From assembly GCA_963763535.1 (NCBI GenBank), contig CAVXOX010000004.1, forward strand, positions 8,254-72,253: a stretch of DNA of 64,000 nucleotides, given 5' to 3'. Below are positions 27,794 through 61,217 of the stretch, piece after piece. The DNA is from an uncultured Acidobacteriota bacterium. Its GTDB lineage: Bacteria > Acidobacteriota > Thermoanaerobaculia > UBA5066 > Gp7-AA6. The first letter of the stretch is position 1; each line of letters opens with the position of its first letter. The notes below the pieces were generated by a model. The model was not told the origin of the DNA. It worked only from the letters and a program-made list of their open reading frames with translations, and searched no databases. The translations under genes and the position numbers were made by a program.

Positions 27794-30157
27794 TCATTGC
27801 AAGTGAAACGTCTTCGTCATGAAGACCGCCATCTGGCCGCGGGTATTCGGGTTGCCAGGGCAGTAGTCGCCTCCGCCGCAGCCTCCCGTGACCCCTTCGG
27901 CGGCGAGCTGTTCGATCCAGTTGGCGAACGTCGACGGACAGGGAACGTCCGCGAAGATACCCGCGCACGTCGGAGGAACGTACGACGATCCGTGCTCCCC
28001 CTTCAGGAGAAACACGGCCATCTGGTCGCGGCGAACGGGCGCCTGAGGACAGAAGTCCCCTCCGCCGCACCCGCCCGTGATGCCCTCGGCCGCCATCTCC
28101 TCGATCCAATCGGCGAAGGCCGAGGGACAGGGAACGTCCGCGAAAACCCCCGAACAGGGAGGCGGCGTGAAGCACAGCCCGTGCTTGCCCTTGAGGATGA
28201 AGACCGCCATCTGCTGCCGAAGCGTGTCGTCGTTGACGCCGTAGAGGCCTCCGCCGATGCCCGCCGTGATCGCGTTCGACACCAGGGTCGTGACGTAGGA
28301 ATAGAACTGCTGGATGCTCGGCACGTCGAGAAAGTCGGCCACGAACGCCTTCACGAGCGTCCCGGTGGTGCCGTCGGTGTTCGTGACGACGAGGTCGTTG
28401 GCCGTTCCGGGAGCGAGGGCCGGAGTCGCAGCCTGCATCGACTCGTACGAAAAGACAATGACGTTCGTCGCGGACACGCCTCCGATCGTCACCGTCGCTC
28501 CCGAGAGGAAGTTCGTGCCCGAAATGTCCAGAAACGTTCCTCCCGCCGCCGGCCCGGAATGGACATCGACGAAAAACGGGAGCCTCTGCGAGAACTCGGA
28601 CGTGTTTCCGGAGGGATCCGTCGCGGTCACCGAGATCTTCGACCCGGCCGCCACCGCCGGCAGCGTCGACACGGTGAAGGGAGCGTTGCCGGTGCCGTCC
28701 GTCGTCACCTGAGAGGAGCCCAGGTAGGTCTCGCCCTGGACGTAATCTCGGGGGAAGTTGGAGCACGCGGCGTTGGCGTAAAAGTCGAGGTCGAACGTCG
28801 TTCCAGGCGTCGAGTCCAGCAGCCCCGTCACCGTCGTGTTGCCCGCGCCGTAAGTGATCGACGAAACGACGGGAAAGTTCTGAAGATCGTTCGCGCCCGT
28901 GTCTCCGTCGCCGAGATCGTTCGCGACGGGATGGCTCGATCCGGTGGAAAGCGAGATTCCGAGCGGTGCATTGTCGTGGATGGAGTTTCCTCGCAGCGTG
29001 TTGCGCGTCCCGCTCAGGACGACGAGGCCGGATCCGCCGTTGTACGCGATCAGGTTTCCGCCGGGTCCCCCGGGCGTCGACGATCCGATGATGCTGGGAG
29101 ACGCCGGCGTCGGCGACGACTGTACGCGCAAGCCGAGGAGCGTGTTGGGCAGGGGCAGCGTGTGCGAGTCGTCGACGCCGATGAAGTTGCCCTGGACGAC
29201 CATGCCGTCCGCGGAAAGGTCGAGGCCGATCGGGTTGCCGGAGACGAGGTTTCCCTCGCCGGGACCCGTTCCCCCGACCACGAGGCTCGGCCCGCCGAGG
29301 TCGATCCCTCCGATTCCATTGCCGAGCGCTGCCGTTCCGTTGATGTCGGTGCCGATCAGGTTCCCCTGGATCGTGACGTCGGGGTGGTTGTTGATCAGGA
29401 TTCCGTACATTGGGTTGCCCGAGATGAGGTTGCCGGCGCCCGGCCCTCCGATCAACAGCGGAGCGTCGGACGTGCCCGAAACGGAGACGATACCGCTGCC
29501 GTTGTTGGGGAGCGCCACGGTGCCCGTCGGGTCGGTGCCGATCTTGTTGTTCTGGATCGTTCCACCGCCGGAGTTCATGTTGATGCCGTGGCCGTCGTTT
29601 CCGGAGATGAGGTTCCCGTCGGCGGCGGAGGGTCCGCCGATCGTGAGGATCGCGGCCGCCACCTCGATGCCTTCTCCGTTCGGTACCGCCACGGTCCCCG
29701 TGGCGTCCGTGCCGATGTAGCAGGCCTGGACCGTAACGGGGATCGGAGTGGCCACATTGACGGCGGTGAGGCAGCCTCCGATGGCCAGGCCCTTGATCGT
29801 CGCTCCTCCGGCCCCGTCCACGCTGAAACCGCTGAAGATCGCGCCGCAGGTGATCTGGATCAAGGGCGAGCCCGAGTAACCCGGCTGGGTCGTCCCGTCG
29901 ATCGTCACGCCGCCGGTCGCGACGCTGAGAAAGGGCAGGCCGCTCGCGAGAGTGATCGCCTGAACGCCGGAGCCGGGGATGTCGAACGTGATCGTGTGCG
30001 GCCCCGGACCGCCGCCGTTGGCGTCGGTGATGGCCTGGCGGAGCGAGCCGGCGCCCGAGTCGCTGGTGTTGGTGACGGTAAAGATCGTTGCGGCGGCGAA
30101 ACGGGCGAAGAGCGTGGCGACGAAAGTGAGAACGAAGGCACGATGCATGCGGTTCAT
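27794..30157 (-). CDS. Secreted beta-helix protein with IPT/TIG and C-terminal triple SLH-like cassette
   Basis: Signal peptide, VTNTSDSGAGSLRQAI, GNLISGN/IQGNxIGT repeats, IPT domain, 3 QMAVF repeats, ends KTFHLQ. Confidence 0.88.
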   Translation of the reverse strand: MNRMHRAFVLTFVATLFARFAAATIFTVTNTSDSGAGSLRQAITDANGGGPGPHTITFDIPGSGVQAITLASGLPFLSVATGGVTIDGTTQPGYSGSPLIQITCGAIFSGFSVDGAGGATIKGLAIGGCLTAVNVATPIPVTVQACYIGTDATGTVAVPNGEGIEVAAAILTIGGPSAADGNLISGNDGHGINMNSGGGTIQNNKIGTDPTGTVALPNNGSGIVSVSGTSDAPLLIGGPGAGNLISGNPMYGILINNHPDVTIQGNLIGTDINGTAALGNGIGGIDLGGPSLVVGGTGPGEGNLVSGNPIGLDLSADGMVVQGNFIGVDDSHTLPLPNTLLGLRVQSSPTPASPSIIGSSTPGGPGGNLIAYNGGSGLVVLSGTRNTLRGNSIHDNAPLGISLSTGSSHPVANDLGDGDTGANDLQNFPVVSSITYGAGNTTVTGLLDSTPGTTFDLDFYANAACSNFPRDYVQGETYLGSSQVTTDGTGNAPFTVSTLPAVAAGSKISVTATDPSGNTSEFSQRLPFFVDVHSGPAAGGTFLDISGTNFLSGATVTIGGVSATNVIVFSYESMQAATPALAPGTANDLVVTNTDGTTGTLVKAFVADFLDVPSIQQFYSYVTTLVSNAITAGIGGGLYGVNDDTLRQQMAVFILKGKHGLCFTPPPCSGVFADVPCPSAFADWIEEMAAEGITGGCGGGDFCPQAPVRRDQMAVFLLKGEHGSSYVPPTCAGIFADVPCPSTFANWIEQLAAEGVTGGCGGGDYCPGNPNTRGQMAVFMTKTFHLQ

Positions 30158-30253: not shown

Positions 30254-32627
30254 TCAGAACGGCAGGTTGAACGTCTTCACCAGAAACACCGCCATCTGCT
30301 GCCGCAGGGCCGGGTCCGCCGGACAGTAGTCGCCCCCGCCGCAGCCTCCCGTGATGCCGCGGTCGGCGAGATCGTAGATCCAGACGGCGAAAGGATTCGA
30401 GCACGGCACGTCGGGAAACGTCGGATTCGTGCAGTCCGGCGGCACGTACGTGAATCCGTTCAATGCCTTGAGCAGGAAGACGGCCATCTGCTGTCGATTG
30501 ACCGGATTCGTCGGACAGAAATGGGTCAGGTCGCAGCCCCCCGTGATGTGCAGCCCCGCCAGCGCCTCGATCCAGGGGTCGAACGGATTTCCGGTGCACG
30601 GCACGTCCTCGAAGACCATCCCGGTGCACGGCGGAGGCGTGTAGCACAGGCCGAGCTCGCCGCGCAGGAGGAAGACCGCCATCTGCTGCCGCGTGACCGA
30701 CGCCGTGGGGCAGTAGTTCGGCCCGCCGCAGCCGACCGTGAGGCCGTTGGCGACGAGACCGCCGATGAACGGACTGAATGCGCCGTTGATGTCCACGTCC
30801 GAGAACTGCGCGACGTAACCGCGCGGCAGCGTCCCCGAGAGACCCGAGGCGTTCGTCAGCGTGACGTCGTTGATCGAGCCGGGCGGCAGCGCGGGCGCAT
30901 TGGCCGTGGCGGTCGTGTTGCTGTCGTCGACGTAGCCCGTGGCCGCCGTTCCTCCCACCATCACCGTGGCCGTCGGCTCGAAGAGCATTCCATCGAGGAC
31001 GAGCTGCTGCCCTCCCGATGCCGCGCCGACGAGCGGCGCCGAGTTCAGGACGAGACGCTGGGAGAACTCCGACGTGTTGCCCTGCGGATCGGTCGCCGTC
31101 GAGGAGATCCGCGAGCCCGGATCGACGACCACCCCCGTGAGAACGACGTCGATCTCCGCGATTCCGTTTCCGTCCGTCGTCACCGGCGAGGCGCCGATCC
31201 ACTGCTCGCCCTGCAGGTAATCCTTCGGGAAGCGGGCGCACGCCGGATTCGAGTAGAAATCGAGGTCGAACGTCGTCGACGCGTGGGAGTTCAGCGTACC
31301 GGTGATGTGCAGGTTGCTGCCTTCCTGAGCGACCGTCGCGACGATCGGGAAGTTTTGGCCGCCGTTGATCACATAGCCGTCGGCGTCGCCGGGATCGTCC
31401 GGGAGCGGGTTCGTCAGACCCCCGAGCGAGACGCCGAACACGTTGTTGTCGTGAATCGAGTTTCCACGCATCGTGGTGCGCGTTCCGCCGAGAACGACGA
31501 GGCCGGTCCCGCCGTTGAAGGCGACGAGGTTCGCTCCGGCGCCTCCGGGGCTGGACGTTCCGATGACGCTCGGCGACGCCGGGGTCGCGGAGGACTGGAC
31601 GCGCAGACCGATCACCCGTGTTCGGCAGCGGCAGCGTGTGCGAGACGTCGACGCCGATGAAGTTCCCCTGAATCAGCATGCCGTCCGAATTCAGATCGAG
31701 GCCGACGGGGTTGCCGGAGACGAGGTTCCCCTCGCCCGCGCCCGTGCCTCCGACGATGAAGGAGGCCCCGCCACCAAACACTCCGCTGGCGCCGTTGCCG
31801 AGGGGCAACGTTCCAGTCGCGTCGGTGCCGATCAAGTTTCCCTGGATCGTGACGTCCGGGTGACCGTCGATCCGGATGCCGTTCTGGGTGTTGCCCGAGA
31901 TCAGGTTCCCCATGCCCGGGCCGCCGATCAACAGCGGCGCCTTGAACACGCCCGTGACCGCGTCGATGCCGTTTCCGTTCGGCAGCGCGACGGTGCCCGT
32001 CACGTCGGTGCCGATGCGGTTGTTCTGGATCGTGCCGCCGCCGGCGTTCATGAAGATGGCGGTCGCATTTCCGGAGATGAGGTTGCCGTCCGAGGCCGAC
32101 GGTCCGCCGATCGTCAGGTTCGCGCTCGCGATCTGGACCCCGCCCCCGTTCGGCACGGCGACCGTTCCCGTGGCATCCGTGCCGATGTAGCAGGCCTGGA
32201 CCGTGACAGGAACCGGGGTATCGGCCCCGACCGCCACGCTGCACCCGCCGATGGCCAGACCCTTGATCGTTCCCCCGCCGGCGGCGTTCACGGTGAATCC
32301 GCTGAACATCGCGCCGCAGGTGACGTCGATCAGCGGCGAGCCCGCATAGCCCGGCTGCGTCGTCCCGTCGATCGTCAATCCGCCGGAGGCGACCGCCATG
32401 TCCGGAAGGGCACTCGCGAGCGCGATCGTATGGACGCCGGAGCCGGGGATGTTGAAGGTGATCGTGTGGGGTCCGGGACCGCCGCTGTCGGCGTCGAGGA
32501 TGGCCTGGCGCAGGGAACCGACGCCCGAGTCATTGGTGTTGACGACCGAGAAGGTCGCGGCGCGGGCGAAGGAGACGGCGAGCAGGAGCAGGAGGCACCA
32601 CGCGAGGACACGACCCTTCTGGACCAT
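30254..32627 (-). CDS. Paralogous secreted beta-helix/IPT/SLH-like protein (frameshift at 31615-31617)
   Basis: GGAGG RBS, ATG32627 MVQKGRVLAW signal peptide. Removing one G gives PNTVIGLRVQSS, colinear with the paralog's PNTLLGLRVQSS. Confidence 0.85.
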
Positions 32628-34267: not shown

Positions 34268-34408
34268 AGAGGCGCTCCCCACGGGAACACTCATGGACGA
34301 AACCCCTCACTCCGTTCCGCTGGAGCCCGGTTCCCACGGCGGCGCGAGCAGAGCCGCCTCTCCCCGGCGCTGTGCCTCCGCGTCGCACGGCTCGGCGGGG
34401 AGCGCTCG

Positions 34409-34846: not shown

Positions 34847-34861
34847 GGCTCGGATTCTGAG

Positions 34862-37415: not shown

Positions 37416-39959
37416 ATGCGACTGCGGTCTCTCTCCGCCACGGTCCTGCTCTGTCTCGCCGCCGTCCCGGCCGCTCGAGCGACGGTGCGCTGCGTCATGC
37501 CGGTCCCGAGCGGCACCGGCTGCTGGGCGCCCGGAACCGCGTTCACGGACCTGCAGCCGGCGCTCGCCGCCTCGGGCTCGGGCGACGAGATCTGGGTCGC
37601 GGCGGCGACGTACAAGCCGGCCGCTGCGGATCGGACGATCAGTTTCGCGCTGAAGAACGGCGTCGGCATCTACGGCGGCTTCGCCGGCGGCGAGACGCTG
37701 CGGAGCCAGCGGGATCCCGCCGCCCACGTGACGATCCTCTCGGGCGACGTCGGAACGCCCGGTTCCGCTTCCGACAACAGCTATCACGTGGTCACGACGG
37801 ATGTCTCGGTGACGTCGTCCGGGGTCCTCGACGGGTTCACCATCACCGCGGGGCAGGCCGACGGGAATCCGGTCTCGAGCCAGGACCGCGGCGCGGGCAT
37901 CTGGGTCAACGGCGGAAGCCCCTCCCTGTCCCAGCTGATCGTCTCGTCGAACTTCGCGTCGGGGCAGGGGGCCGGGATGCGCGTCACGTCCGCCTCGCCG
38001 ACGATCCTGAACTCGTCCTTCCTCTTCAACTCGGTCAGCTTCGGCGGCGCGGGCGCCGGCCTCTACTCGGGAGGCGGCAGCGCCGTGTACCTGCAGGACT
38101 GCATCTTCCGGTCGAACTCGATCTCGGGCGCCTCGACGGGCGGCGGCGGCATCGACACGGCGGGCAACACCACGCTCGTCAACTGCGTCGTCGCGCAGAA
38201 CAGCCCGAACGGCATCCAGACGAACACGGCGGGCGGCAACAACAACACCATCAAGGACTCGACGTTCACCGCCAACAGCCCGGGATACGGCCTGGCGCTT
38301 TTCAACAGCACGGGAAACGTCATCCAGAACTCGATCTTCTGGGGCGACGCGTCCGGCGAGATCTTCAACGACGGGCTCTCGTCCTTCGGCGCCGAGTACT
38401 CGGACTTCCAGGGCGGCGGCGTCGCGGGCACGGGCAACATCGCCACGGACCCGCTCTTCCTCGGCGCGCCCGACGACCTGCGTCCGGGGCCGGGTTCGCC
38501 CGCCGTCGACGCCGGCAAGAACCTCGACGTTCCGGGCGGCGTGACCCTCGACCTCGCGGGACTGCCGCGGTTCTTCGACGACCCGGCGGTCCCCAACACG
38601 GGCGCCGGCATTCCCCCGATCGTCGACATGGGCGCCTATGAGCGCATCCCGATCACGGTCACGACGCCCGACGACCTCATCGTCTGCGCGGGGGCGCAGG
38701 CGGTCTTCAGCGTCGCCGCGACCGGCCAGCCGACGCTGACCTATCAGTGGCGCAAGAACTCGACTCCCATTTCGGACGCGGGTTCGATCTCGGGCACCAT
38801 GACCGACACGCTGACGATCGACCCCACCGTGATGGGAGACTCGGGCGCCTACGACGTCGTGGTCACCGACGGATTCGGGCAGAACCTCACGTCACCGTCG
38901 GCGCAGCTGACGGTCAACGCACGGCCGACGGCGTCGGCCTCCGGAGCCGCGACGGTGTGCGCCGGCATCTCGACGCCGCTGTCGGGCTCGGGCGGCGTCT
39001 CCTGCTCGTGGACGCCGTCGAGCGGCCTCGACAATCCCTCGAGCTGCTTCCCGAGCGCGACGCCGACGGTCACCACGATCTACACGCTGACGGTCACCGC
39101 GGCGAACTCCTGCCCGTCGACGAACAACCCGACGGTGACCGTGACGGTCAATCCGGTGCCGGATCTGCCCGGGATCGCCTCACCCCTCTCGGTTCCCGTG
39201 GGCGCCTCCGGCGCCTCGGCGAGCGCGCCGAACCACACCGGCTCCTCGTACGCGTGGACGCTCTCCGGCGGCACGATCACCGCCGGACAGACGACCCACC
39301 AGATCGTGTTCGACGCCGGATCCCCCGGCACGACGATGGTGTGCACCGTCATCGAGACGAACGCCGGCTGCGATTCGCCGATGGCGTCGAAGAACATCCA
39401 GGTGGACTTCCTCGACGTGCCGCCGTCGAACACCTTCCACGACTACGTCGACACCGTCGCGCGCAACGGCGTCACCGCCGGCTGCGGCGGGGGCAACTAC
39501 TGCGGCACCGCGACCGTCACGCGCGCGCAGATGGCCGTCTTCCTGCTGAAGGCCGAGCACGGCTCGAGCTTCGTTCCGGACTCCTGCAGCGGCCTCTTCG
39601 CCGACGTGCCGTGTCCGGGCGGGTTCGCGGTGGACTGGATCGAGCAGCTCGCCAACGAGGGCATCACCGGCGGCTGCGGCGGCGGCAACTACTGCCCGAA
39701 CAACGCCGTCCGGCGCGACCAGATGGCCGTCTTTCTGCTGAAAACGTCGCAGGGCGCCTCCTACGTCCCGCCGCCGGCGACCGGCACCGTCTTCGCGGAC
39801 GTCCCGGTCTCCGCGTTCGCCGCCGACTGGATCGAGGACCTCTATGCCCGCAGCGTCACGGGAGGCTGCCTGACCAACCCGCTGCGCTACTGTCCGACCA
39901 ACACCAACAACCGGCAGCAGATGGCGGTCTTCATCACGAAGACGTTCGGGCTGCAGTAG
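37416..39959 (+). CDS. Secreted beta-helix + Ig-domain protein with SLH-like cassette
   Basis: AAGGAG RBS, signal peptide, DEIWVAAATY, IYGGFAGGE, DMGAYE, LTYQWRKN Ig domain, 3 SLH-like repeats. Confidence 0.88.
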   Translation: MRLRSLSATVLLCLAAVPAARATVRCVMPVPSGTGCWAPGTAFTDLQPALAASGSGDEIWVAAATYKPAAADRTISFALKNGVGIYGGFAGGETLRSQRDPAAHVTILSGDVGTPGSASDNSYHVVTTDVSVTSSGVLDGFTITAGQADGNPVSSQDRGAGIWVNGGSPSLSQLIVSSNFASGQGAGMRVTSASPTILNSSFLFNSVSFGGAGAGLYSGGGSAVYLQDCIFRSNSISGASTGGGGIDTAGNTTLVNCVVAQNSPNGIQTNTAGGNNNTIKDSTFTANSPGYGLALFNSTGNVIQNSIFWGDASGEIFNDGLSSFGAEYSDFQGGGVAGTGNIATDPLFLGAPDDLRPGPGSPAVDAGKNLDVPGGVTLDLAGLPRFFDDPAVPNTGAGIPPIVDMGAYERIPITVTTPDDLIVCAGAQAVFSVAATGQPTLTYQWRKNSTPISDAGSISGTMTDTLTIDPTVMGDSGAYDVVVTDGFGQNLTSPSAQLTVNARPTASASGAATVCAGISTPLSGSGGVSCSWTPSSGLDNPSSCFPSATPTVTTIYTLTVTAANSCPSTNNPTVTVTVNPVPDLPGIASPLSVPVGASGASASAPNHTGSSYAWTLSGGTITAGQTTHQIVFDAGSPGTTMVCTVIETNAGCDSPMASKNIQVDFLDVPPSNTFHDYVDTVARNGVTAGCGGGNYCGTATVTRAQMAVFLLKAEHGSSFVPDSCSGLFADVPCPGGFAVDWIEQLANEGITGGCGGGNYCPNNAVRRDQMAVFLLKTSQGASYVPPPATGTVFADVPVSAFAADWIEDLYARSVTGGCLTNPLRYCPTNTNNRQQMAVFITKTFGLQ

Positions 39960-40019: not shown

Positions 40020-41831
40020 ATGAGAACCCTCGGTTCATGCCGGCTGCTGGCGTTGGAGGTCGCGATCCTGGGGGCCGGCCATGCCCTTCTGGCCCAGGCT
40101 CCCTCGTTCACGCCCCTGACCGAGATGGGACCTGCAACCTATCTCGGCTTCTCGGGAGGCCTCTACGCGGACGGACGCAACACGATGCCGTCCGACCATG
40201 CTGCCGACGGCCTCGCGCGCGCGCAATCAATCCAACCGCTCGACGTGCTCGGCCATCCCGACCCGGCAGGACGGGTCGTCCTGCTCTCCATCGGGATGTC
40301 GAACACGACCCAGGAGTTCTGCTCGCAGGGGGGGCTGCAGCCCTGCAATGCCTGGACCTTCATCGGCCAGGCGACCGTCGACGCGGAGGTCGATCATTCG
40401 AGGCTGGCGCTCGTCAACGGCGCCCGCGCCGGTCAGACGGCGATGACGTGGGACTCTGCCTCCGACCCGAACTACGACCGCGTCCGGGACGTGGACCTGG
40501 CGGCGCAGGGCCTGACCGAGGCTCAGGTCCAGGCCGCCTGGGTCAAGGTCGCCGACGCCAATCCGACAATCTCTCTGCCCGATGCGAACGCCGACGCCTA
40601 CTTCCTCGAAGCGGAGATCGGCGACATTGCCCGCGCGCTGCGCGTCCGGTATCCGAACCTCCAGCTCGTCTTTCTTTCCAGTCGCATCTACGCGGGGTAC
40701 GCATCGTCGCCGCTCAATCCCGAGCCATACGCGTACGAGTCCGGCTTCGCCGTGAAGTGGATCGTGCAGGCTCAGATCGACCAGATCGAGAGTGGATCGA
40801 TCGTCGACCCGCGCGCGGGCGACCTCGACGACACGACAGTCGCGCCCTGGCTCGGATGGGCGGCGTATCCCTGGGCAGACGGCACGAATCCGCGGTGCGA
40901 CGGCCTGATCTGGGAGGCGGCCGATTTCGAGAGCGATGGAACACATCCGTCTCAATCCGGAGAAGCCAAGGTCGGCACGATGCTCCTCGACTTCTTCAAG
41001 ACCGACCCTCGCATGCGGCCGTGGTTCCTGGGCCTCGCCGCCGTGGCGGTCCAGCCGACGTCCGGCGATTCGGCGGGGGGCACCGCGATCACGATCTCCG
41101 GCGCGAACTTTCAGAACGGCGCTACCGTACACGTTGGAGGCTCCAACGCGTCCGTCGTCTCGGTCTCTCCGGAGTCGATCGCGGCGACCACGCCGGGCCT
41201 CCTGCCCGGAACCCTGAACGACGTCCAGGTCGACAATCCCGGTGATTCGAACGGCATCGCTCGGGCCGCGTTCTTCTCCGACTTCCTCGACGTTTCGCAG
41301 GCGCACCCGTTCCACGCGTTCGTCGAGACGATCTTGCGCTCGGGGGTAACCGCCGGATGCGGCACGGGGATCTTCTGCCCGGAGGAGGCCATCACGCGAG
41401 CGCAGATGGCGGTCTTTCTCCTCAAGGCGCGTTACGGAACCTGCTACGCGCCGCCGCCAGCGACCGTGACGCTCTTTGCCGACGTTCCTCAGGACGCCTT
41501 CGCCGCAGACTGGATCGAGGAGCTCTCCGGCCTCGGCATCACGGGCGGCTGCGGCGGAGGCAACTACTGCCCCGATTCGCCCGTCACGCGGGCTCAGATG
41601 GCGGTGTTCCTCCTCAAGACGCTCCTCGGCGCCTCCTACGTCCCGCCCGCGGCCGTCGGCATCTTCGGCGACGTACCGGTCGGGGCCTTCGCCGCCGACT
41701 GGATCGAAGACCTGTACGCCCGGGCCATCACCGGCGGCTGTTCGGCGAGCCCGCTCCTCTTCTGCCCCGATGCCTCCGACACGCGCGGCCAGATGGCAGT
41801 GTTCCTCACCAGGACATTCGGGTTGCCGTAG
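40020..41831 (+). CDS. Secreted SGNH-hydrolase-like protein with IPT/TIG and SLH-like cassette
   Basis: GGAGGGAGG RBS; LLSIGMSNT (block I-like), VNGA, DGTHPS (DxxH); IPT domain; 3 SLH-like repeats. Confidence 0.78.
41280..41831 (+). repeat. Representative copy of the SLH-like C-terminal cassette (8 copies in window)
   Basis: From DFLDV to stop: 552 nt at 41280, 44018, 48420 and 52883; 555 nt at 39405; 543 nt at 60675 and at 28336 (minus); a diverged copy ends at 30254. Confidence 0.9.
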
Positions 41832-45499: not shown

Positions 45500-45539
45500 G
45501 AATCGGCGTCGAGTAATCGGCAAATCGATTGAGGCAAGC

Positions 45540-48500
45540 ATGACTTCGACGGTTCGACCTGGCGGCGCGAGGGGCGCTGCGTTCCTCGCGGTTGTCTTCG
45601 CGCTGTTGACCGCACCCGCGATTCGCGCCGCGACGAACTACCACCAGACGGGCTTCTCGGAGTCGGTGGTCTTCAGCGGCCTCTCGAGCCCCACCACGGT
45701 GCGGTTTCTTCCCGACGGCCGCGTGATCGTCGCGGAGAAGAGCGGGTTGATCAAGCTGTTTCCGAACCTGACGACGAACAGCTACACGGTCGTCGCGGAC
45801 CTGCGGACGAACGTGCACGACTTCTGGGACCGCGGACTGCTCGGCCTCGCCGTGGACCCGAACTTCGCGTCGAACAACTACGTCTACGTCCTCTACACCT
45901 TCGACGCTCCGATCGGCGGCACGGCGCCGACGTGGGGCCCCGGCGACGGCACGTCGGACCCCTGCCCCACACCGCCCGGCGCCACGACCGACGGCTGCGT
46001 CGTCAGCGGACGCCTGTCGCGCCTGACGGCGGTGGGCACGGACTGGACCTCGAGCGAGACCGTGCTCATCAACGACTGGTGTCAGCAGTTCCCGAGCCAC
46101 TCGGTCGGCTCGCTCAACTTCGGCGCCGACGGGTACCTCTACGTGACGGCCGGCGAGGGGAGCAACTTCAACAACACCGACTGGGGACAGTGGGGCGGCA
46201 CGCTGCCGGGCACGCCGACGCCGAAGAACCCCTGCGGCGACCCGCCGGCCGGCGTGGGCGGCGACGAGACGCCGCCGTCGGCCGAGGGCGGGGCGCTGCG
46301 CGCCCAGTCGCCGCAACGGGCGGGCGCGGAGCCGCGCCTCCTGAATGGGTCGGTGCTGCGCGTCGATCCCGCGACCGGCGACGGCGTGCCGGGCAACCCG
46401 TTCTTTGCGAGTAATGACCCCAACGCGCGACGCATCATCGGCTACGGAATGCGCAATCCCTTCCGGGCGACGATCCGGCCCGGCACGAACGACATGTGGA
46501 TCGCGGACGTGGGCTGGAACGACTGGGAGGAGATCGACGGTTGCCCGACCTGACGAGCGCCCGCGATTACGGCTGGCCGTGCTACGAGGGCACGGGGCAC
46601 CAGCCCAGTTACGACGCCGCCGCGCTCACGATCTGCGAGGACCTCTACACGGCGGGTACGGCCGTCGCGCCCTTCTTGACCTACAACCACGCGAACCACG
46701 TCACGGGGGACGACGGCTGTCCCACCGGCAGCTCCTCGATCGCGGGACTCGCGTTCTACGAGGGGGGCAGCAACTACCCCTCGAACTACAACGGCGCGAT
46801 GCTCTTCTCCGACTACTCGCGCGTCTGCATGTGGATCATGTTCCCCGACGCCAACGGCGTGCCCAATCCGGCGACCACGGAGGCCTTCGCCTCGGCAGCC
46901 CAGGGGCCCGTGGACATCCAGGTGGGTCCCGACGGGAACTTCTACTACGTCGACTTCCTCGGCGGGCAGGTCCTGAAGATCCAGTACGGCCTCCACGCGA
47001 TCGCGACCGGCACCCCGACCACGGGTCCGCTCCCGCTCACCGTCCAGTTCGACGGCTCCCAGTCGGTGCCGGCGCAGCCCGGCGACACGCTTTCCTACTC
47101 GTGGGACCTGAACGGCGACGGCGTCTTCGGCGACTCGACGCTCGTCCAGCCCACGTACCAGTACACCGTGGCGGGCACCTACAACGTCCGGCTGAAGGTG
47201 ACCGACCAGCGCGGAGGCAGCGACATCTCCACGCCGGTCGTGATCAACGCCGGCAACGAGGACCCCACGGCGACCATCACGGCGCCGCCGGGCACGCTGA
47301 CGTGGAAGGTGGGCGACACGATCAACTTCGCGGGCACCGGCACCGACCCTCAGGACGGGACGCTTCCGCCGAGCGCCTTCGCGTGGACGATCATCATCCA
47401 CCACTGCCCGTCCGACTGCCACACCCACATCTACCAGACGTTCAGCGGGGTCACGAGCGGCTCCTTCGTCGCGCCCGATCACGAGTATCCGTCGTGGCTC
47501 GAGATCCAGCTCGTGGTCACCGACTCCGACAACAACACGGGCACGGCGAGCGTCCTCATCTATCCCCAGACCGTCGTCCTGACGATGGCATCGGTGCCGT
47601 CGGGCCTGCAGCTGTCGATCGGCACGCAATCCGGCCCCACTCCGTACACGGACACGGTGATCATCGGGTCCGCCAACCAGGTCATCGCCGCGCCCACGCA
47701 GGGCGCGTACCCGCAGATCTGGGAGTTCGTGAGCTGGTCCGACAACGGCGCCTCCACTCACGTGATCACCGCGCCGCCGAACCCCGCGACGTACACGGCG
47801 ACGTACACGGTCCACGCGGACCTCTCGATCGGCATGACCGGACCGGCCGAGATCTGCGAAGGGCAACCGGCGACGTACACCCTGAACGTGGCCAACGCGG
47901 GGCTCTCGCAGGCGACCTCGATCACCGTCGTCGACACGCCGCCCCCGGGGGCGACGGTCGTGTCCGCGAGCGGCGACACGTGGACCTGCGGCGGGACGGC
48001 GCCCATCATCTGCACGCTGCCGGTGCTCGACATCACCTCGGCGCCGCCGATCACGGTCGTCCTGAACGCGCCGGTCGGGATGGGCACCAACACGGCCACC
48101 GTCGGCTCCAGCGTCACCGACATCAACGGCGCGAACAACACGGCCTCGGTCAACACGACCGTCGACGCCGCCCGGCGCAGCCTCGATCACCGTCGAGAAC
48201 TGGACCCCGGTCGGCGCGGTGGGCGTTCCCGCGAGCGTGCCCGACGATCCCGGCTCGAGCTGGGCGTGGACGTTGACGGGCGGGTCGATCGACACGGGAC
48301 AGGGCAGCTCCGCAATCACGTTCGACGCGGGCGCACCGGGAACGACGATGTCGCTCCAGGTCGTCGAGTCCAACGGCTCGGGGTGCGCGTCGCCGGCCGG
48401 ATCGGCCCTCGTCCAGGTGGACTTCCTCGACGTGCCGCCGGCGCAGATCTTCCACGACTACGTCGACGCGATCGCGCGCAACTCCATCACCGTCGGCTGC

Positions 48501-48971
48501 GGCGGCGGCAACTACTGCCCCGACGCGCCGAACACGCGCGCCCAGATGGCGGTCTTCCTGCTGAAGGCGGAGCACGGCGCCTCCTACACGCCGCCCGCGT
48601 GCGCCGGGATCTTCGCGGACGTGCCCTGTCCGGGAGGCTTCGCCGTCGACTGGATCGAGCAGCTCGCCAACGAGGGCGTCACGACCGGCTGCGGCAACGG
48701 GAACTACTGCCCCGACGCTGCGGTGACGCGCGCCCAGATGGCGGTCTTCCTGCTGAAGACCCACCTGGGTTCCAGCTACGTGCCGCCGCCGGCCGTCGGC
48801 ATCTTCGGCGACGTCCCGCCGGGATCCTTCGCGGCCGACTGGATCGAGGACCTCTACAACCGCTCGATCACGGGCGGCTGCCAGGCGTCGCCGCTGCTCT
48901 ACTGCCCCGACAACCCCAACACCCGCGGTCAGATGGCCACCTTCATCACGAAGACTTTCGGGTTGCCGTAA
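45540..48971 (+). CDS. PQQ-dependent sugar dehydrogenase-like beta-propeller + PKD + DUF11 + Ig + SLH-like cassette (frameshifts at ~46539 and ~48175)
   Basis: DRGLLGLAVDPNF, FGADGYLYV, GMRNPFR, ADVGWN..EE, YSWDLNGDG. Three ORF pieces are colinear with the intact paralog at 49124. Confidence 0.85.
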
Positions 48972-49123: not shown

Positions 49124-52100
49124 TTGAGGCTGGCCGGCGAGCAATTGGTCGCGGGTTCGCGGGGCCCCGCGCTCCGTCCTCGGCGCGCGGCCGCGGCGGC
49201 CGCGGTCCTCCTTCTCGCCGTGACGACGGCGGCCCTGGCGACCTCCTTCAAGCAGGCCGGTTTCTCGGAGACCGCCGTCTTCACCGGGCTGACCAACCCG
49301 ACCGTCGTCCGCTTCCTCCCCGACGGCCGCGTGCTCGTGGCCGAGAAGAGCGGTCTCCTGAAGATCTTCCCCAACCTCACGACGAATACGTTCACGGTCG
49401 TCGCGGACCTGAGGACCGAGGTGCACAACTTCTGGGACCGCGGGCTCCTGGGCCTGGCGATCGACCCGAACTTCGCGTCGAACAACTTCGTGTACGTCCT
49501 CTACTCCTACGACGCTCCGATCGGCGGCTCGCCGCCCCGGTGGGGCGTCGCCGGTCAGACCTCCGACGGCTGCCCGACGCCGCCCGGGGCGACCACGGAT
49601 GGCTGTGTCATCAGCGGCCGGCTTTCGCGGCTCACCGCGACCGCCGGGGACTGGGGGGCGAGCGAGACGCCGCTCATCAACGACTGGTGCCAGCAGTTCC
49701 CGAGCCACTCGATCGGATCGCTCGACTTCGGCGCCGACGGTTATCTCTACGTCTCGGGCGGCGACGGCGCGAGCTTCAACAACGCCGACTGGGGACAGTT
49801 CGGCGGCACGTCCGGAGCGCCGCCCCCGATTCCCGCCAACCCGTGCGGCGATCCGCCGTTTCCGGTCGGGACGCCGCAGACGAAGCCCACCGGCGAGGGC
49901 GGCGCGCTGCGAAGCCAGAGCCACCTGCGCACGGCGGGCGAGGCGAGGGTCCTGAACGGATCGATCCTGCGCATCGACCCCGCCACCGGCGCGGCGGCTC
50001 CCGGCAATCCCCTGATCGGGTCCGGCGACCTCAACGAGCAGCGGATCATCGGCTACGGCCTGCGGAACCCCTTCCGCATGATCGTGCGCCCGGGCACGAA
50101 CGAGGTCTGGATCGCCGACGTCGGCTGGAACACGTGGGAGGAGCTCAACCGGATTCCGGACCTGACGAGCGCGCGCAACTTCGGATGGCCGTGCTTCGAG
50201 GGCAACGCGGCTCAATACACGGGCCTGAACATCTGCCCGCCGCAGGCGCAGACGACCGCGCCGCTGCTGACGTACAACCATTCTGCGTCGGTCGTCGCGG
50301 GCGACGGCTGCCCGACCGGAAGCTCCTCGGTCGCGGGCCTCGCCTTCTACCAGGGCGGCAGCAACTACCCGTCGAACTACCCGAACTCCCTCTTCTTCTC
50401 GGACTACTCGCGCAAGTGCATCTGGGTGATGTTCGCCGACGGCGGCGGCAATCCGGACCCCGGAAACGTGGCCGCGTTCGCATCGAGCGCGGCGGGCCCG
50501 GTCGACCTGAGGATCGGCCCGGACGGAAACCTCTTCTACGCCGACTTCGACGGCGGCCGGATCATGGAGGTCGAGTACGGCCTCGCGGCGATCGCCACCG
50601 CGACGCCGACCTCAGGCAGCGCGCCGCTGACGGTCGACTTCGACGGCTCGGGATCGGTGCCCGCGCAGCCGGGCGACACGCTCACGTACGCCTGGGACCT
50701 CGACGGCGACGGCCAGTTCGACGACTCGAGCGCCCAGAAGCCCGTCTTCGTCTACGACACGCCGGGCACCTACACGGTCCGGCTCAGGGTGACCGACCAG
50801 CGCGGCGGCTCCTCGACCTCGGCGCCGATCACGATCTCCGCCGGCAACACGCCGCCGACGGCCTTCATCGACGGGCCGCCGTCCTCGCTGACGTGGAAGG
50901 TCGGCGACACGATCACGTTCTCGGGCCACGCGACCGACGACCAGGACGGCACGCTCCCGGCATCGGCCCTGTCGTGGCAGGTGATCATCCATCACTGCCC
51001 GTCGAACTGTCATACGCACATCTACCAGACTTACTCGGGCGTCGCGGGGGGCTCCTTTCCCGCACCCGACCACGAGTACCCCTCCTACCTCGAGATCCAG
51101 CTCACCGCCACCGACGCGCAGGGCTTGACCGGCACCGCGAGCGTGAGCATCCAGCCGCAGACCGCCTCGCTCATGTTCCAGACCAGCCCCACCGGGTTGC
51201 AGCTGACGGTCGGAACCTCGCCGCCCCAGACGACGCCGTTTACGCAGACCGTCATCGTCAACTCGCTGAATAGCGTCCAGGCCACCTCGCCGCAGGGCGC
51301 GCTGCCGAACATCTGGGAGTTCTCGTCCTGGTCGGACGGCGGAGCCCAGAACCACAACATCACGGCGCCGCCGGGCACGTCCTCCTACACGGCGACCTAC
51401 CTGACGCACGCGGACCTCGCGGTCGGCGCGAGCGTGACGCCGGAACCGGTCGGCGCCGGACTGCCGATGACCTACACGCTTTCCGTCTCGAACACCGGCC
51501 CCTCGCAGGCGAACTCCGTCACGCTCACCGACGCCCTCCCCGCGGGCGCGTCGTTCGTCTCCGCCGGCGGAACGGGATGGACCTGCGGCGGCACGGGGCC
51601 GGTCACCTGCACGCTGCCGGCGTTGCCCCCCGGGGCGGCGGCGCCGATCACGCTCGTCGTCACCGCGCCGAGCGAGGGCGCGTCGGTGTCGAACACGGCG
51701 ACCGTCGCATCGGCGACGAACGACCCGGCCTCGGGCAACAACTCGGCGACGACGCCCTCGACCGTCTTCGCGCGCGCCGACCTCTCGATCGGACAGACCG
51801 GCGCGCCGGCGGCGATCTGCGCGGGGGCGCCGATCACGTACTCGCTGAACGTGTCGAACGGCGGACCGTCGACCGCGGCGACGCTGACGGTCACCGATGT
51901 CCGGCCCGCCGGCGCCACCCTCGTCTCCGCGTCGGGCGCCGGCTGGTCCTGCAGCGGCACGGCCACGGTCACGTGCACGCGCCCCTCGCTCGCGCCCGGC
52001 TCCGCTCCCGCGATCACCGTCGCCACCACGGCGCCGTCGGCGGCGGGCACCGCGACGAATGCCGTGTCCGTCTCGTCGCCGACGAGCGATCCATCGGCCG

Positions 52101-53434
52101 CGAACAACGCGGCGAGCGCCTCGACCACCGTCAACGCGATCCCGCCGGCGCCGACCGTGGGCAACAGCGGACCGGTGTGCGTCGGCGGCACGCTGCAGCT
52201 CACCGCGTCCACCGTTCCCGGGGCGACGTACTCCTGGTCCGGCCCGAACGGCTTCGCGTCCGCGCTCCAGAATCCCACGATCGCGGGCGTCACGCCCGCC
52301 GCCGCGGGCGCCTACTCGGTGACGGTCAGCGTCGAGGGCTGCGCCTCGGCGGCGGGGGGTACCACGGTCTCCGTGCTGCCGGTGCCCTCGGCGCTCGTCA
52401 GCGGCGACGCGACGATCTGTCCCGGCTCCTCGACCGAGATCTCCGCCGCGCTGACGGGCACCGGGCCGTGGAACCTCATATGGTCGGACGGCCTGGCGCA
52501 GAGCGTCGGGTCCTCGCCCGCGACCCGAAGCGTGGCGCCGTCGGCCACGACCGTCTACACCGTCACGAGCGTGCAGGACGCCCTCTGCGCCGCGCCGGGC
52601 TCCGGCAGCGCGACCGTGACCCTGGCGCCGCCGGTTCCGGCGCCCGTCGTCGCGGCCTCGAGCTGGGTGCCGGCCGGCGCGACCGGCATCGCGGCGAGCG
52701 TGCCCGCGCACGACGGATCGACGTACGCGTGGACGCTGTCGGGAGGAACCATCTCGAGCGGCCAGGGCTCCCCGACCGTCACGATCGACGCCGGCGCGCC
52801 CGGCACGACCATGGTCCTCTCGTGCTCGGAGACGAGCGCGCAGGGGTGCGCGTCGCCGGAGGGCGTCGCGAGGATCCAGGTGGACTTCCTCGACGTGCCG
52901 CCCGCGCATCCCTTCCACGACTTCGTGGACACGATCGCGCGGGACGGCGTGACCGCGGGCTGCGGCGGAGGGAACTACTGCCCGGAGGCGCCAAACACGC
53001 GGGCGCAGATGGCCGTCTTCCTCCTGAAGGCGAAGTACGGCGCCGACCACGTGCCGCCGCCGGCCACCGGCAGCGTCTTCCAGGACGTCCCGGCATCGAA
53101 CCCGTTCGCGCCGTGGATCGAGGAGCTCGCCGGTCTCGGCGTCACGGGCGGTTGCGGCGGCGGCAACTACTGCCCTGGCGCTCCCGTCACCCGCGCCCAG
53201 ATGGCGGTGTTCCTGCTGAAGGCCCTGCTCGGGGCCAGCTACGCGCCGCCCGCGGCCATCGGTATCTTCGGCGACGTGCCCGTAGGCGCGTTCGCGGCCG
53301 ACTGGATCGAGGACCTCTACGGCCGCGGAATCACGGGCGGCTGCCAGGCCTCGCCGCTGCTCTACTGCCCGAGCAACCCGGATACCCGCGGCCAGATGGC
53401 GGTCTTCCTCACGAAGACGTTCGGGCTGCAGTAA
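49124..53434 (+). CDS. PQQ-dependent sugar dehydrogenase-like + PKD + 2x DUF11 + Ig domains + SLH-like cassette
   Basis: AAGGGAGGGA RBS before TTG; GLRNPFR, NFGWPCFEG, YAWDLDGDG, YSWSGPNGF; 3 SLH-like repeats. Confidence 0.9.
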   Translation: MRLAGEQLVAGSRGPALRPRRAAAAAAVLLLAVTTAALATSFKQAGFSETAVFTGLTNPTVVRFLPDGRVLVAEKSGLLKIFPNLTTNTFTVVADLRTEVHNFWDRGLLGLAIDPNFASNNFVYVLYSYDAPIGGSPPRWGVAGQTSDGCPTPPGATTDGCVISGRLSRLTATAGDWGASETPLINDWCQQFPSHSIGSLDFGADGYLYVSGGDGASFNNADWGQFGGTSGAPPPIPANPCGDPPFPVGTPQTKPTGEGGALRSQSHLRTAGEARVLNGSILRIDPATGAAAPGNPLIGSGDLNEQRIIGYGLRNPFRMIVRPGTNEVWIADVGWNTWEELNRIPDLTSARNFGWPCFEGNAAQYTGLNICPPQAQTTAPLLTYNHSASVVAGDGCPTGSSSVAGLAFYQGGSNYPSNYPNSLFFSDYSRKCIWVMFADGGGNPDPGNVAAFASSAAGPVDLRIGPDGNLFYADFDGGRIMEVEYGLAAIATATPTSGSAPLTVDFDGSGSVPAQPGDTLTYAWDLDGDGQFDDSSAQKPVFVYDTPGTYTVRLRVTDQRGGSSTSAPITISAGNTPPTAFIDGPPSSLTWKVGDTITFSGHATDDQDGTLPASALSWQVIIHHCPSNCHTHIYQTYSGVAGGSFPAPDHEYPSYLEIQLTATDAQGLTGTASVSIQPQTASLMFQTSPTGLQLTVGTSPPQTTPFTQTVIVNSLNSVQATSPQGALPNIWEFSSWSDGGAQNHNITAPPGTSSYTATYLTHADLAVGASVTPEPVGAGLPMTYTLSVSNTGPSQANSVTLTDALPAGASFVSAGGTGWTCGGTGPVTCTLPALPPGAAAPITLVVTAPSEGASVSNTATVASATNDPASGNNSATTPSTVFARADLSIGQTGAPAAICAGAPITYSLNVSNGGPSTAATLTVTDVRPAGATLVSASGAGWSCSGTATVTCTRPSLAPGSAPAITVATTAPSAAGTATNAVSVSSPTSDPSAANNAASASTTVNAIPPAPTVGNSGPVCVGGTLQLTASTVPGATYSWSGPNGFASALQNPTIAGVTPAAAGAYSVTVSVEGCASAAGGTTVSVLPVPSALVSGDATICPGSSTEISAALTGTGPWNLIWSDGLAQSVGSSPATRSVAPSATTVYTVTSVQDALCAAPGSGSATVTLAPPVPAPVVAASSWVPAGATGIAASVPAHDGSTYAWTLSGGTISSGQGSPTVTIDAGAPGTTMVLSCSETSAQGCASPEGVARIQVDFLDVPPAHPFHDFVDTIARDGVTAGCGGGNYCPEAPNTRAQMAVFLLKAKYGADHVPPPATGSVFQDVPASNPFAPWIEELAGLGVTGGCGGGNYCPGAPVTRAQMAVFLLKALLGASYAPPAAIGIFGDVPVGAFAADWIEDLYGRGITGGCQASPLLYCPSNPDTRGQMAVFLTKTFGLQ

Positions 53435-58192: not shown

Positions 58193-58205
58193 GCGCGGGC
58201 CCCGC

Positions 58206-58790: not shown

Positions 58791-58886
58791 GAATGTCCCA
58801 GGCTTTTCGGGCGGGATTTAACCACAGCCGACGAATATGATCCCGGTCCTCCGCGCTCCCCGCGTTTGGAGAGGAGGCCAATCCTC

Positions 58887-61217
58887 ATGACAACCCGACC
58901 CGTCGGCCGCGTCCTGGTTCTGGTCCTCGCGCTCCTGGCCCCCTGCGCCATGACGGCGGCCACGCTCACGGTCACGAACACCGGCGATTCCGGCGCCGGA
59001 TCGCTGCGGCAGGCGATTCTCGACGCCGACGCCGGTGCGGGAGGCGACACGATCACGTTCAACATCCCCGGCGGCGGGCCTTTCGTCATCTTGCCGCAGC
59101 CGCCCGGGCTTCCGGCCATTCTCAAGCCGACGACCGTGGACGGCACGACGCAGCCCGGCTATGCCGGCACCCCGATCATCGAGATCGCCAACTTCAGCGG
59201 CACCGGCTTGAAGCTCCAGGGCGGCGGGAGCACGGTTCGCGGCGTCGTCGTGCGCGGCATGAACAACGGCATCTCGATGGAGAGCAGCAACAACCACGTC
59301 GAGGGCTGCTACGTCGGGACCGACGTGACGGGCACGCTGGCCGCCGCCAATGGCACCGGGATCACCGTCCAGTCCGGCTCGACCGGCAACACGATCGGCG
59401 GCTCCTCGGCGGCCCAGCGGAACCTGATCAGCGGCAACATGGCAGGCATCGCGCTCATCAACGCCACGAATGCCGTCATTCAGGGCAACTACATCGGCAC
59501 GACCGCCGACGGCACCGCCCCCCTCGGCAACAGCCAGGGCATCCTCGCGACCGCCACGACCAATCTCGTCGTGGGCGGTTCGGGCGCGGGTGAGGGCAAC
59601 GTGATCGCGGCGAGCTCCCTGGAGGGGATTTACCTGACGAGCGGGAGCGGCGCCCTCATCCAGGGCAACCGGATCGGGACGAACGCGGCGGGCACCGAGG
59701 CCCTCGGAAACGACGTCGGCGTCAGCGCCTCCAGCCATACCGGCCTCGCCCTCGGCGGCAACTTCAATGCGGGCGAAGGGAACCTGATCTCCGGAAACAC
59801 CCATCAGGCCGTGTTGCTCGCGAGCGTCGGCGCCGTCGTGAAGGGCAACACGATCGGCCTCGACGTCACGGGCCAGCTGCTCCTCGGCAACGGGACGGGC
59901 ATCGAGATGGACGTCGCCGCGACCGACTGCGTCATCGGCAGCATCGCGAACGGCGAAGGCAACGCGATCGCCTGGAACGACGTCGGCATCTACAACTACG
60001 GCGTCCGCAACTCGATTCGCGGCAACCCGATCTTCTTCAACGGCTCGATCGGCATCGACAACGACCCGGCCGGCGTGACCATCAACGACGCCGGCGACGC
60101 CGACACGGGCGCGAACGAGCTGCAGAACTTCCCGTTCATCTCGTCCGTCGACTACGGGCCCGGGCCTTCGCTCACGGCGCACGGCATCCTCCAGTCGACG
60201 CCGAACGTGACGTTCGATCTCGACTTCTACGAGAGCCCCTCCTGCACGCCGCACCCGCGCGACCTCCTGCAGAGCGCGTACTACATCGGGTCGACGCAGG
60301 TTATGACGGACGGCTCGGGCAACGTCAACTTCGACACTCTCCTGAGTGACCCCAATGCCGCAAGCATGCCGATCATCACCGTCACCGCGACGGATCCCTC
60401 CGGCAATACCTCCGAGTTCTCGCAGAACGTGATCTACGCGTCGAGCCCGCGCTCCGGCCCTCCCGCGGGAGGCGTGACGGTGACGCTGACCGGGACGCAC
60501 TTCGTCTCGGGCGCGACGGTCACCTTCGGCGGGGTTCCGGGCACGAACGTCACCTTCACCAGCGAGACGAGCATGAAGGCGGATGCGCCCGCCCTTTCCG
60601 CGGCGACCGTCAACGACATCATGGTGACGAACACGGACGGCACGGCGGGAACGCTCAAGAAGGCCTGGATCGTCGACTTCCTCGACGTGCCGCCCTCGCA
60701 GCAGTTCTACACGTGGGTCACGACGCTGGTCTCGAACGCGATCACGGTCGGCGTCGGCAGCGGCAACTACGGCGTCGCGGACCCCACGCTGCGGCAGCAG
60801 ATGGCCGTCTTCCTGCTGAAGGGCCGCCACGGCATCTGCTACGTCCCGCCGACGTGCCAGGGCGTCTTCGGCGACGTCGCCTGTCCCTCGACGTTCGCGG
60901 ACTGGATCGAGGCCCTGGCGGCCGAGGGCATCACCGGCGGATGCGGCGGCGGCAACTACTGCCCGACGAACCCGGTGCGCCGCGACCAAATGGCGGTCTT
61001 CCTGCTGAAGGCCGAGCACGGATCGGCGTACGTTCCGCCGGCGTGCCTCGGGATCTTCGCCGACGTCCCCTGCCCGTCGCAGTTCGCCAACTGGATCGAG
61101 CAGCTGAGCCACGAGGGGATCACCGGCGGCTGCGGCGGCGGCAACTACTGCCCGCAGAACCCGAACACCCGAGGCCAGATGGCCGTGTTCCTCGTCAAGA
61201 CGTTCGGCCTGCAGTAA
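58887..61217 (+). CDS. Secreted beta-helix protein with IPT/TIG and SLH-like cassette
   Basis: GAGGAGG RBS; VTNTGDSGAGSLRQAI, NLISGN repeats, IPT domain, 3 SLH-like repeats. Confidence 0.88.
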   Translation: MTTRPVGRVLVLVLALLAPCAMTAATLTVTNTGDSGAGSLRQAILDADAGAGGDTITFNIPGGGPFVILPQPPGLPAILKPTTVDGTTQPGYAGTPIIEIANFSGTGLKLQGGGSTVRGVVVRGMNNGISMESSNNHVEGCYVGTDVTGTLAAANGTGITVQSGSTGNTIGGSSAAQRNLISGNMAGIALINATNAVIQGNYIGTTADGTAPLGNSQGILATATTNLVVGGSGAGEGNVIAASSLEGIYLTSGSGALIQGNRIGTNAAGTEALGNDVGVSASSHTGLALGGNFNAGEGNLISGNTHQAVLLASVGAVVKGNTIGLDVTGQLLLGNGTGIEMDVAATDCVIGSIANGEGNAIAWNDVGIYNYGVRNSIRGNPIFFNGSIGIDNDPAGVTINDAGDADTGANELQNFPFISSVDYGPGPSLTAHGILQSTPNVTFDLDFYESPSCTPHPRDLLQSAYYIGSTQVMTDGSGNVNFDTLLSDPNAASMPIITVTATDPSGNTSEFSQNVIYASSPRSGPPAGGVTVTLTGTHFVSGATVTFGGVPGTNVTFTSETSMKADAPALSAATVNDIMVTNTDGTAGTLKKAWIVDFLDVPPSQQFYTWVTTLVSNAITVGVGSGNYGVADPTLRQQMAVFLLKGRHGICYVPPTCQGVFGDVACPSTFADWIEALAAEGITGGCGGGNYCPTNPVRRDQMAVFLLKAEHGSAYVPPACLGIFADVPCPSQFANWIEQLSHEGITGGCGGGNYCPQNPNTRGQMAVFLVKTFGLQ

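Follow-up and report, generated by a model that had tools for sequence, protein, structure and literature searches.

A C-terminal SLH domain trimer with paired cysteines, expanded in an uncultured Acidobacteriota bacterium

The DNA described here is a stretch of 64,000 bases (the window) from contig CAVXOX010000004.1 of an uncultured Acidobacteriota bacterium, GenBank assembly GCA_963763535.1. Between positions 27794 and 61217 it contains eight genes and one remnant that close with the same cassette, a triple repeat of about 183 amino acids. A first-pass annotation, made by a model from the sequence, had claimed as much, and a six-frame motif scan and the translations of the open reading frames (ORFs) confirm it. 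The cassette is a bona fide trimer of S-layer homology (SLH) domains, which structure prediction renders as a three-pronged spindle. Nearly every repeat has a pair of cysteines in one loop, and these very probably form a disulfide.

What the cassette does is, with fair probability, conventional. It would be an ordinary SLH anchor to a pyruvylated glycan, with stapled loops, in an unusual diderm host, located in the wall or periplasm. This is not a new kind of system, and the proteins are already called SLH-domain proteins in public annotation. The scale is another matter. An acidobacterial diderm of the lipopolysaccharide (LPS) type devotes about 66 genes to SLH anchoring, a trait that is treated as Terrabacterial. 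Cassettes in both Acidobacteriota and Chloroflexota also have a bearing on where envelope-anchoring systems occur and how they are exchanged, and they raise the question of where SLH proteins sit in a diderm envelope.

SLH membership, predicted fold and cysteine pairs

The SLH domain has the entries PF00395 in Pfam and PS51272 in PROSITE. All eight genes match the Pfam family, with 28.5 to 51.3 bits against a gathering cut-off of 20.8. Genome-wide there are 97 such matches. A profile of seven cassettes also matches the SLH domains of SbsB (4aq1, 9e-9) and Sap (3pyw, 6bt4) among solved structures. An AlphaFold model computed from the seven-sequence alignment has six helices, two per repeat, with a pLDDT of 85.8 and a pTM of 0.82. 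Compared with known structures by Foldseek, all 15 of its matches with E<=0.001 are SLH trimers of Sap or SpaA. The top matches are 3pyw, 6bt4 and 6cwc, at TM 0.68-0.79, and 3pyw is the best of them (TM 0.79, E 1.8e-8). Calling the cassette "SLH-like", as the first-pass annotation did, therefore understated things, and the three-prong fold that it wanted checked by structure prediction is what the model resembles.

Two of the three ligand landmarks of SpaA and Sap are retained in all repeats. One is the second glycine of the GIIxG motif, which here reads G(I/V)T.G in every repeat and is invariant in the seven cassettes (G29, G93, G156). The other is the arginine at the TRAE position, also invariant (R43, R107, R172). 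In the account of ligand binding in Blackler 2018 (PMC6081394), SLH Gly29 and the TRAE arginine bind the pyruvate ketal. The TRAE motif itself varies, taking the forms TRAQ, TRGQ, RRDQ, LRQQ and NRQQ. Its final residue is always Gln and never Glu; TRAQ is described as natural in the third SLH domain of SpaA in the same account.

Aligned over 192 columns, the seven cassettes are 54-75% identical to that of gene H, and 63 columns are invariant. The shared ending KTFxL(Q/P) reported in the first-pass annotation is indeed conserved, except that gene B ends in KTFNLPF and gene D in RTFGLP. In the model, of 186 residues, this ending falls within the core's last helix (172-183), which would make it the tail of that helix and not a separate signal.

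The repeats follow the pattern G(I/V)T.G-C-x5-7-(F/Y)-C-P. The first cysteine comes directly after SLH-Gly29, and the second takes the place of x in the canonical F-x-P. The aligned repeats of Sap and SbsB have no cysteine at these positions. A hidden Markov model (HMM) of a single repeat, run on all six frames of the host genome, finds 266 repeat units, of which 254 can be scored for the loop pair and 12 are gapped. By a column-based count, 227 units have both cysteines, 25 have neither and 2 have only one; these two discordant units are both in broken fragments. A set of 264 database proteins, with 837 units of which 15 are gapped, gives 802, 20 and 0. That both loop cysteines always come together, across two phyla, is what a disulfide predicts. 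A second pair, C-x8-C, flanks the F.DVP motif that opens repeats 2 and 3. In the host genome, 112 units have both of its cysteines, 85 have neither and 2 have only one.

The host genome also contains a homologue of VKOR (33.9 bits, cut-off 27.5); DsbB was not found in it. The strict co-presence and the VKOR homologue together are the reason why the disulfide-stabilised module of the first-pass annotation is very probably correct. A pair of cysteines beside the ligand-binding glycine is a simple structural variation, and it may stabilise the binding loop. The stapled cassette could also serve as a robust display tag.

A reading of the cysteines as a metal site was set aside: there are only two per repeat, and each pair has its own lobe in the predicted fold. 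The literature searched, which left subscription journals and supplements outside, yielded no account of an SLH subtype with paired cysteines. The SLH literature does mention a "conserved cysteine"; in the paper examined this is a lipoprotein cysteine.

Expansion, distribution and the pyruvyltransferase gene

The host genome, here labelled G000, is 4.62 Mb in size and 95% complete. An HMM of the cassette matches 107 of its six-frame ORFs, and 66 of these have near-complete cassettes, 61 at the C-terminus of the ORF and five elsewhere. The genome has several clusters of such genes. The cluster in the window counts as eight near-complete ORFs (including one gene past the end of the window, and excluding gene E) and ranks second to a 20-gene cluster on contig C8.

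Some proteins have the SLH trimer in the middle. Two of them, at C14:34483-36933 (L004) and C8:211184-214294 (L005), have the arrangement TIG-SLHx3-DUF1800, which is shared by database homologues. Scanning four proteins with internal or N-terminal SLH domains turned up these two DUF1800 fusions, one SDR protein and one RHS/PGAP1-like protein. An SLH-porin like OmpM was not found among these four, for which no beta-barrel predictor was used. There are also about 13 paralogous small secreted proteins (some 220-260 residues), with an uncharacterised N-terminal domain and a single C-terminal SLH repeat of the Cys type (examples in Table 1). Three of these might come together to form one SLH spindle.

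The cassette is not confined to one lineage. Searching public proteins with the cassette of gene D gives at least 7,972 matching proteins. Among the matches listed, all 120 have at least two Cys-loop motifs and 116 of 120 have at least three. NCBI names among the matches include Thermoanaerobaculia, Chloroflexi/Chloroflexota, Anaerolineales, Candidatus Villigracilis and one metagenome-assembled genome (MAG) of Syntrophomonadaceae. The first-pass annotation was thus wrong to call the module lineage-specific, with the Cys-type cassette present in MAG proteins that NCBI names as Chloroflexi and Anaerolineales. A profile search of 1.84 billion cluster representatives finds 94,377 matches at E<=1e-3, 32,888 at E<=1e-10 and 5,477 at E<=1e-30, where the weaker ones will include ordinary SLH domains. 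In species-representative genomes, the best 80 loci are all from Thermoanaerobaculia or Acidobacteriota MAGs, at 58-79% identity, which places the host in Thermoanaerobaculia.

Within the phylum the distribution is patchy. In a sample of 301 Acidobacteriota genomes, with a threshold of E<=1e-20, the cassette is present in 11. The genus-mate of the host (G286) is one of them and has a similar expansion. The cassette was not found in the family's other genus or in the order's sister family, as far as these are in the sample. Any Pfam SLH match at all is found in 61 of the 301 genomes, mostly one match each.

In about 50 of the 301 genomes there is just one Pfam SLH match, located in an open frame that often has some 450-540 residues. 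One such frame, L093 (G227:C41:18700-20900), codes for a TPR protein with canonical, Cys-less SLH repeats of the TRAE type, and adjoins a sugar transferase gene. It was considered that the single-SLH protein of other Acidobacteriota might be a porin, and the one example examined is this TPR protein.

The host genome has three ORFs of the PS_pyruv_trans family, one of which is CsaB-like. On TIGR03609 it scores 200.8-203.4 bits over profile positions 2-291 of 301, and on Pfam PS_pyruv_trans it scores 127.5 bits, which is a clear match. The corresponding gene of the genus-mate scores 218.6 bits, above the TIGR03609 cut-off of 213.1. The host ORF is about 5 kb downstream of two cassette genes. At C10:39651-43694 (locus L009:4652-8692), a single frame holds the CsaB-like domain, about 350 residues without a family, a GT2 domain and a GT1 domain. 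Long open frames likewise hold the CsaB-like match in G286, G064 and G276, so this fusion with glycosyltransferases is probably real. A UDP-GlcNAc 2-epimerase is present as well.

The first-pass annotation had suggested profiling for co-occurrence with CsaB, and this gave a positive result. At E<=1e-40, 9 of the 11 genomes with the cassette have a CsaB-like match, compared with 7 of the other 290 Acidobacteriota genomes. The Fisher p value is around 1e-11, or 3e-9 when the host's own genus is excluded, although both values overstate the case because related genomes are not independent. The co-occurrence spans at least five families. In three genomes (G143, G276 and G096) the CsaB-like and cassette genes are on the same contig, within a few kilobases of each other. 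Given a CsaB-like pyruvyltransferase that co-occurs with the cassette and sometimes adjoins it, the "unknown ligand" of the first-pass annotation appears too strong. That annotation had also stated that it would be undone by a subtype scattered across phyla with no co-occurring machinery. The scatter across phyla is borne out, yet the subtype does have co-occurring machinery, namely the CsaB-like gene in the Acidobacteriota sampled.

Proposed mechanism, location and rival explanations

In the proposed mechanism, the C-terminal SLH trimer would fold into a three-pronged spindle. It would hold Sec-exported enzymes and adhesin-like proteins, non-covalently, on a pyruvylated glycan that is linked to peptidoglycan and made by the CsaB-like pyruvyltransferase. 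The cysteine after SLH-Gly29 and the one in the F/Y-C-P turn would, most likely, be joined in a disulfide that staples a loop of the ligand groove. The linker that precedes repeats 2 and 3 would be stapled by the optional C-x8-C pair, and all these bonds would be made by an envelope oxidase of the VKOR type. In Chloroflexota, where the cell is monoderm, this cassette would lead to true surface display.

For the host itself, the envelope matters. The genome contains LpxC and two Omp85 homologues, so it belongs to an LPS-type diderm; the first-pass annotation had presumed a diderm. The N-termini of all eight genes look like Sec signal peptides, judged by eye and with no predictor used, which agrees with the earlier claim. 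With Sec signal peptides only, SLH proteins of such an LPS-type diderm would by default be located below the outer membrane, in the wall or a periplasmic layer. This is the periplasmic side, and the surface display that the first-pass annotation proposed is not what would be expected.

Several things weigh against a conventional, wall-bound anchor. The third ligand landmark is missing: in the HMMER alignment to Sap, the column of SLH-Trp13 is not Trp but Ala or Pro, with a conserved Phe beside it. The cassette does have an invariant Trp of its own (W81, W144), four residues beyond this column, where repeat 1 has F, Y or W. The residue after Gly29, described for SpaA as the pocket Lys110 (PMC6081394), is Cys in the cassette. 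The CsaB-like ORF of the host is below the NCBIfam cut-off (200.8 versus 213.1 bits), and two cassette-positive genomes, G071 and G144, have no CsaB-like gene at E<=1e-40, while being 91-93% complete. TagA/WecG, the N-acetylmannosamine transferase, was not found in the 95%-complete host genome and was found in all four SLH/CsaB control organisms. The score below the cut-off and the fusion to GT2 and GT1 mean that the glycan may differ from 4,6-Pyr-beta-D-ManNAc.

The cysteine counts need some care too, since they include many paralogues that share descent, and so overstate the number of independent events. The 25 loops without cysteines are nearly all from repeat 1 of one subfamily, genes A and I included. 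In 23 of these 25 units there is an extra cysteine (h-C-Y) at the end of the unit, leaving an odd number in the cassette. Finally, cargoes like the S8 protease and the beta-helix/Ig proteins look extracellular and are a poor fit to the periplasm.

This last point is where true cell-surface display comes in, which is kept only as a rival reading and is considered unlikely. The proteins would cross the outer membrane, for example by a type II secretion system, and the stapled SLH domains would bind a pyruvylated surface glycan such as a capsule, an exopolysaccharide or something O-antigen-like. Besides the S8 protease and the beta-helices with Ig/PKD/TIG stalks, homologues come with M35/M10 peptidases and GH16. 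The fusion of the CsaB-like enzyme to a pair of glycosyltransferase domains is reminiscent of polysaccharide loci, and as TagA was not found, the polymer need not be a classical peptidoglycan-linked secondary cell wall polymer. Disulfide staples would also suit a harsh external milieu. Against this, the proteins have only Sec-type signal peptides by eye, and no path for them through the outer membrane was identified, nor was one searched for. Characterised diderm SLH domains (Thermus, Deinococcus, cyanobacteria, Negativicutes) work in the periplasm, and the GSDH-type dehydrogenase of E. coli is periplasmic. Binding of diderm SLH domains to the wall is also what the survey in 10.1101/2021.05.31.446380 describes. 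Sec signals and a wall-linked ligand would thus favour the periplasmic side and cargo types the outside.

The ligand could also be a different one. The stapled SLH domains might bind peptidoglycan, or polyamine-modified peptidoglycan as reported for OmpM of Negativicutes, with the CsaB-like gene serving an unrelated polysaccharide. The unconserved Trp13, the Cys in the pocket, the score of the CsaB-like ORF and the absence of TagA from the matches would all fit this, as would the CsaB-like gene in 7 of the 290 cassette-negative genomes. It is nonetheless judged improbable, given that the equivalent of Arg43 is invariant in all three repeats, and that the CsaB-like co-occurrence is strong over at least five families, with adjacent genes in three other genomes. 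Least likely of all, with a very small chance of being right, is that the cassette is chiefly a sorting or secretion signal for a dedicated machine, like the C-terminal domains of the type IX secretion system or PEP-CTERM, and not a wall binder. The strictly C-terminal place of the cassette in 61 of 66 near-complete cases and the conserved terminal motif would be expected of such a signal. That motif, however, appears to be the end of an SLH core helix in a cassette modelled as SLH-folded throughout. The cassette has no hydrophobic tail or cleavage-type motif, and five of the 66 are not at the end of the ORF, two being the confirmed TIG-SLHx3-DUF1800 proteins.

The conventional SLH anchor can also be placed next to known systems. 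With the trimers of Sap (3PYW/6BT4) and SpaA (6CWC), the cassette shares three repeats of about 60 residues, a predicted spindle (TM 0.7-0.8), and the GIIxG-type glycine and TRAE-position arginine in every repeat. The TRAQ variant of the third SpaA domain, the use as a terminal module on diverse enzymes and the co-occurrence with CsaB-like genes are shared as well. It differs in its loop cysteine pair in nearly every repeat and its optional linker pair, in lacking the canonical Trp13, and in a motif that ends in Gln in all repeats. The host differs too, being an LPS-type diderm of the Acidobacteriota in which TagA was not found and the CsaB-like domain is fused to glycosyltransferases.

A C-terminal SLH anchor on glycoside hydrolases and proteases is familiar from Clostridia, Thermoanaerobacterium and Paenibacillus, where one anchor serves many cargoes, often with Ig-like spacers before the SLH domains. 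Compared to these, the cassette has a far higher copy number (66 near-complete in a 4.6-Mb genome), another type of envelope and Cys-stapled loops. The survey in 10.1101/2021.05.31.446380 also mentions that SLH domains anchor "other proteins". It describes OmpM/Slp tethers in Thermus, Deinococcus, cyanobacteria and Negativicutes, which have in common with the present case SLH domains in a diderm and the pairing of SLH with CsaB. In the cassette proteins, however, the trimer stands at the C-terminus of soluble enzymes, with no beta-barrel porin attached. According to the survey, SLH/CsaB is practically absent in Gracilicutes and was lost in Chloroflexi, although its supplementary tables may list exceptions. 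No paper dedicated to S-layer homology in Thermoanaerobaculia or Acidobacteriota was found in the literature searched, and the results for Anaerolineae were unrelated.

It is possible, if doubtful, that there is more to it. The Cys-stapled SLH domains and the CsaB-glycosyltransferase fusion, without TagA, may constitute a distinct anchoring system with a glycan of its own. This system could have been transferred between Anaerolineae-type Chloroflexota and a few Acidobacteriota, and in this LPS-type diderm, a member of the Gracilicutes, it would tether the roughly 66 enzymes and adhesin-like proteins in a layer rich in enzymes, either below the outer membrane or on it.

Genes in the window, cargoes and assembly quality

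The genes and their domains are listed in Table 1. They are not contiguous: genes for ThyX, an SDF symporter, an amidohydrolase and a Ser/Thr kinase are interspersed. The G+C content of the window is about 70%, because of which spurious long ORFs are abundant.

Table 1. Cassette genes in the window, with examples of single-repeat proteins elsewhere in the host genome.
Feature	Position	Strand	Content	Basis
Gene A	27794..30157	-	signal peptide, beta-helix, TIG, triple SLH cassette 27797-28354; repeat 1 without Cys pair	Pfam, translation, alignment
Gene B	30254..32627	-	signal peptide, beta-helix, triple SLH cassette 30257-30814; one frame change near 31615-31631	Pfam, translation
Gene C	37416..39959	+	signal peptide, beta-helix, Ig/I-set, PKD-like, triple SLH cassette 39399-39956	Pfam, translation, alignment
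Gene D	40020..41831	+	signal peptide, N-terminal domain without Pfam family (possibly SGNH-like), TIG, triple SLH cassette 41271-41828	
Gene E	41954..44569	+	signal peptide, subtilase S8, DUF11, PKD-like stretch, SLH repeats 1-2 in frame; repeat 3 core out of frame	
Remnant	~45282..45499	+	end of SLH repeat 2, and repeat 3; one stop, one frame change; no cargo	
Gene G	45540..48971	+	signal peptide, GSDH propeller, PKD, DUF11, PKD-like, triple SLH cassette 48411-48968; two frame changes	
Gene H	49124..53434	+	GSDH propeller, PKD, DUF11 x2, PKD-like, triple SLH cassette 52874-53431; start codon uncertain	
Gene I	58887..61217	+	signal peptide, beta-helix (NosD-like), TIG, triple SLH cassette 60657-61214; repeat 1 without Cys pair	
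Single-repeat small proteins (examples)	C4:173733-174545; C11:512669-513514; C5:1215938-1217116		host genome G000	

A triple SLH-type module on many different cargoes, as originally described, is well supported. Pfam bears out the four beta-helices (A, B, C and I, beta-helix/NosD), the protease (E, Peptidase_S8 with DUF11) and the two PQQ-type propellers (G and H, the sugar dehydrogenase family GSDH with PKD and DUF11). The "SGNH-like esterase" claimed for gene D is unconfirmed. Before its cassette, Pfam gives only TIG, and its N-terminal domain has no family. Language-model matches of this domain to GDSL clusters are weak (0.79-0.80) and the motifs were read by eye, so that D is possibly SGNH-like, as a lead only.

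A TIG domain directly precedes the cassette in A, D and I, and a PKD-like domain does so in C and G, all by Pfam. In E and H the spacer is PKD-like by eye, from its likeness to that of C. The Pfam scan gives no spacer in B. Given these domains directly before the cassette, the mobile unit may include an Ig-like spacer. The cassettes of D and H are 75% identical despite unrelated cargoes, which means that the cassette has moved between genes, beyond being copied along with them.

In the present assembly, genes B, E and G are split by single-base frame changes, those in G being near 46540 and near 48150-48220. Gene E has two compensating single-base shifts of opposite sign, at about 44462 and about 44553. 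These are some 90 bases apart and flank the core of repeat 3, with the result that about 30 residues are out of frame and the ancestral stop is retained. This may be real decay or two assembly errors.

Just upstream of the cluster, at 26499-27721 (-), is an IscS/NifS-like cysteine desulfurase gene that changes frame near 26880: the Aminotran_5 match breaks off at position 267 of the 371 in the profile, and the usual C-terminus resumes in another frame. This gene shares the kind of frameshift seen in B, E and G, which suggests that some of the shifts, at least, are assembly indels and not pseudogenes. The genus-mate is unsuited to settling single-base errors, as its cassette DNA is only about 78% identical. 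Three soil-metagenome runs contain 5-8% of the sampled words, and none of the pieces listed from their short contigs (about 150-320 bases) spans the frameshift sites in B, E and G. Relative to the window, these contigs do show one inserted base at 34353 (two runs) and one deleted base at 45517 (one run).

The ThyX-type protein mentioned above, at 32678-34267 (+), is 529 residues long and has two Thy1 stretches, making it about double the usual length.

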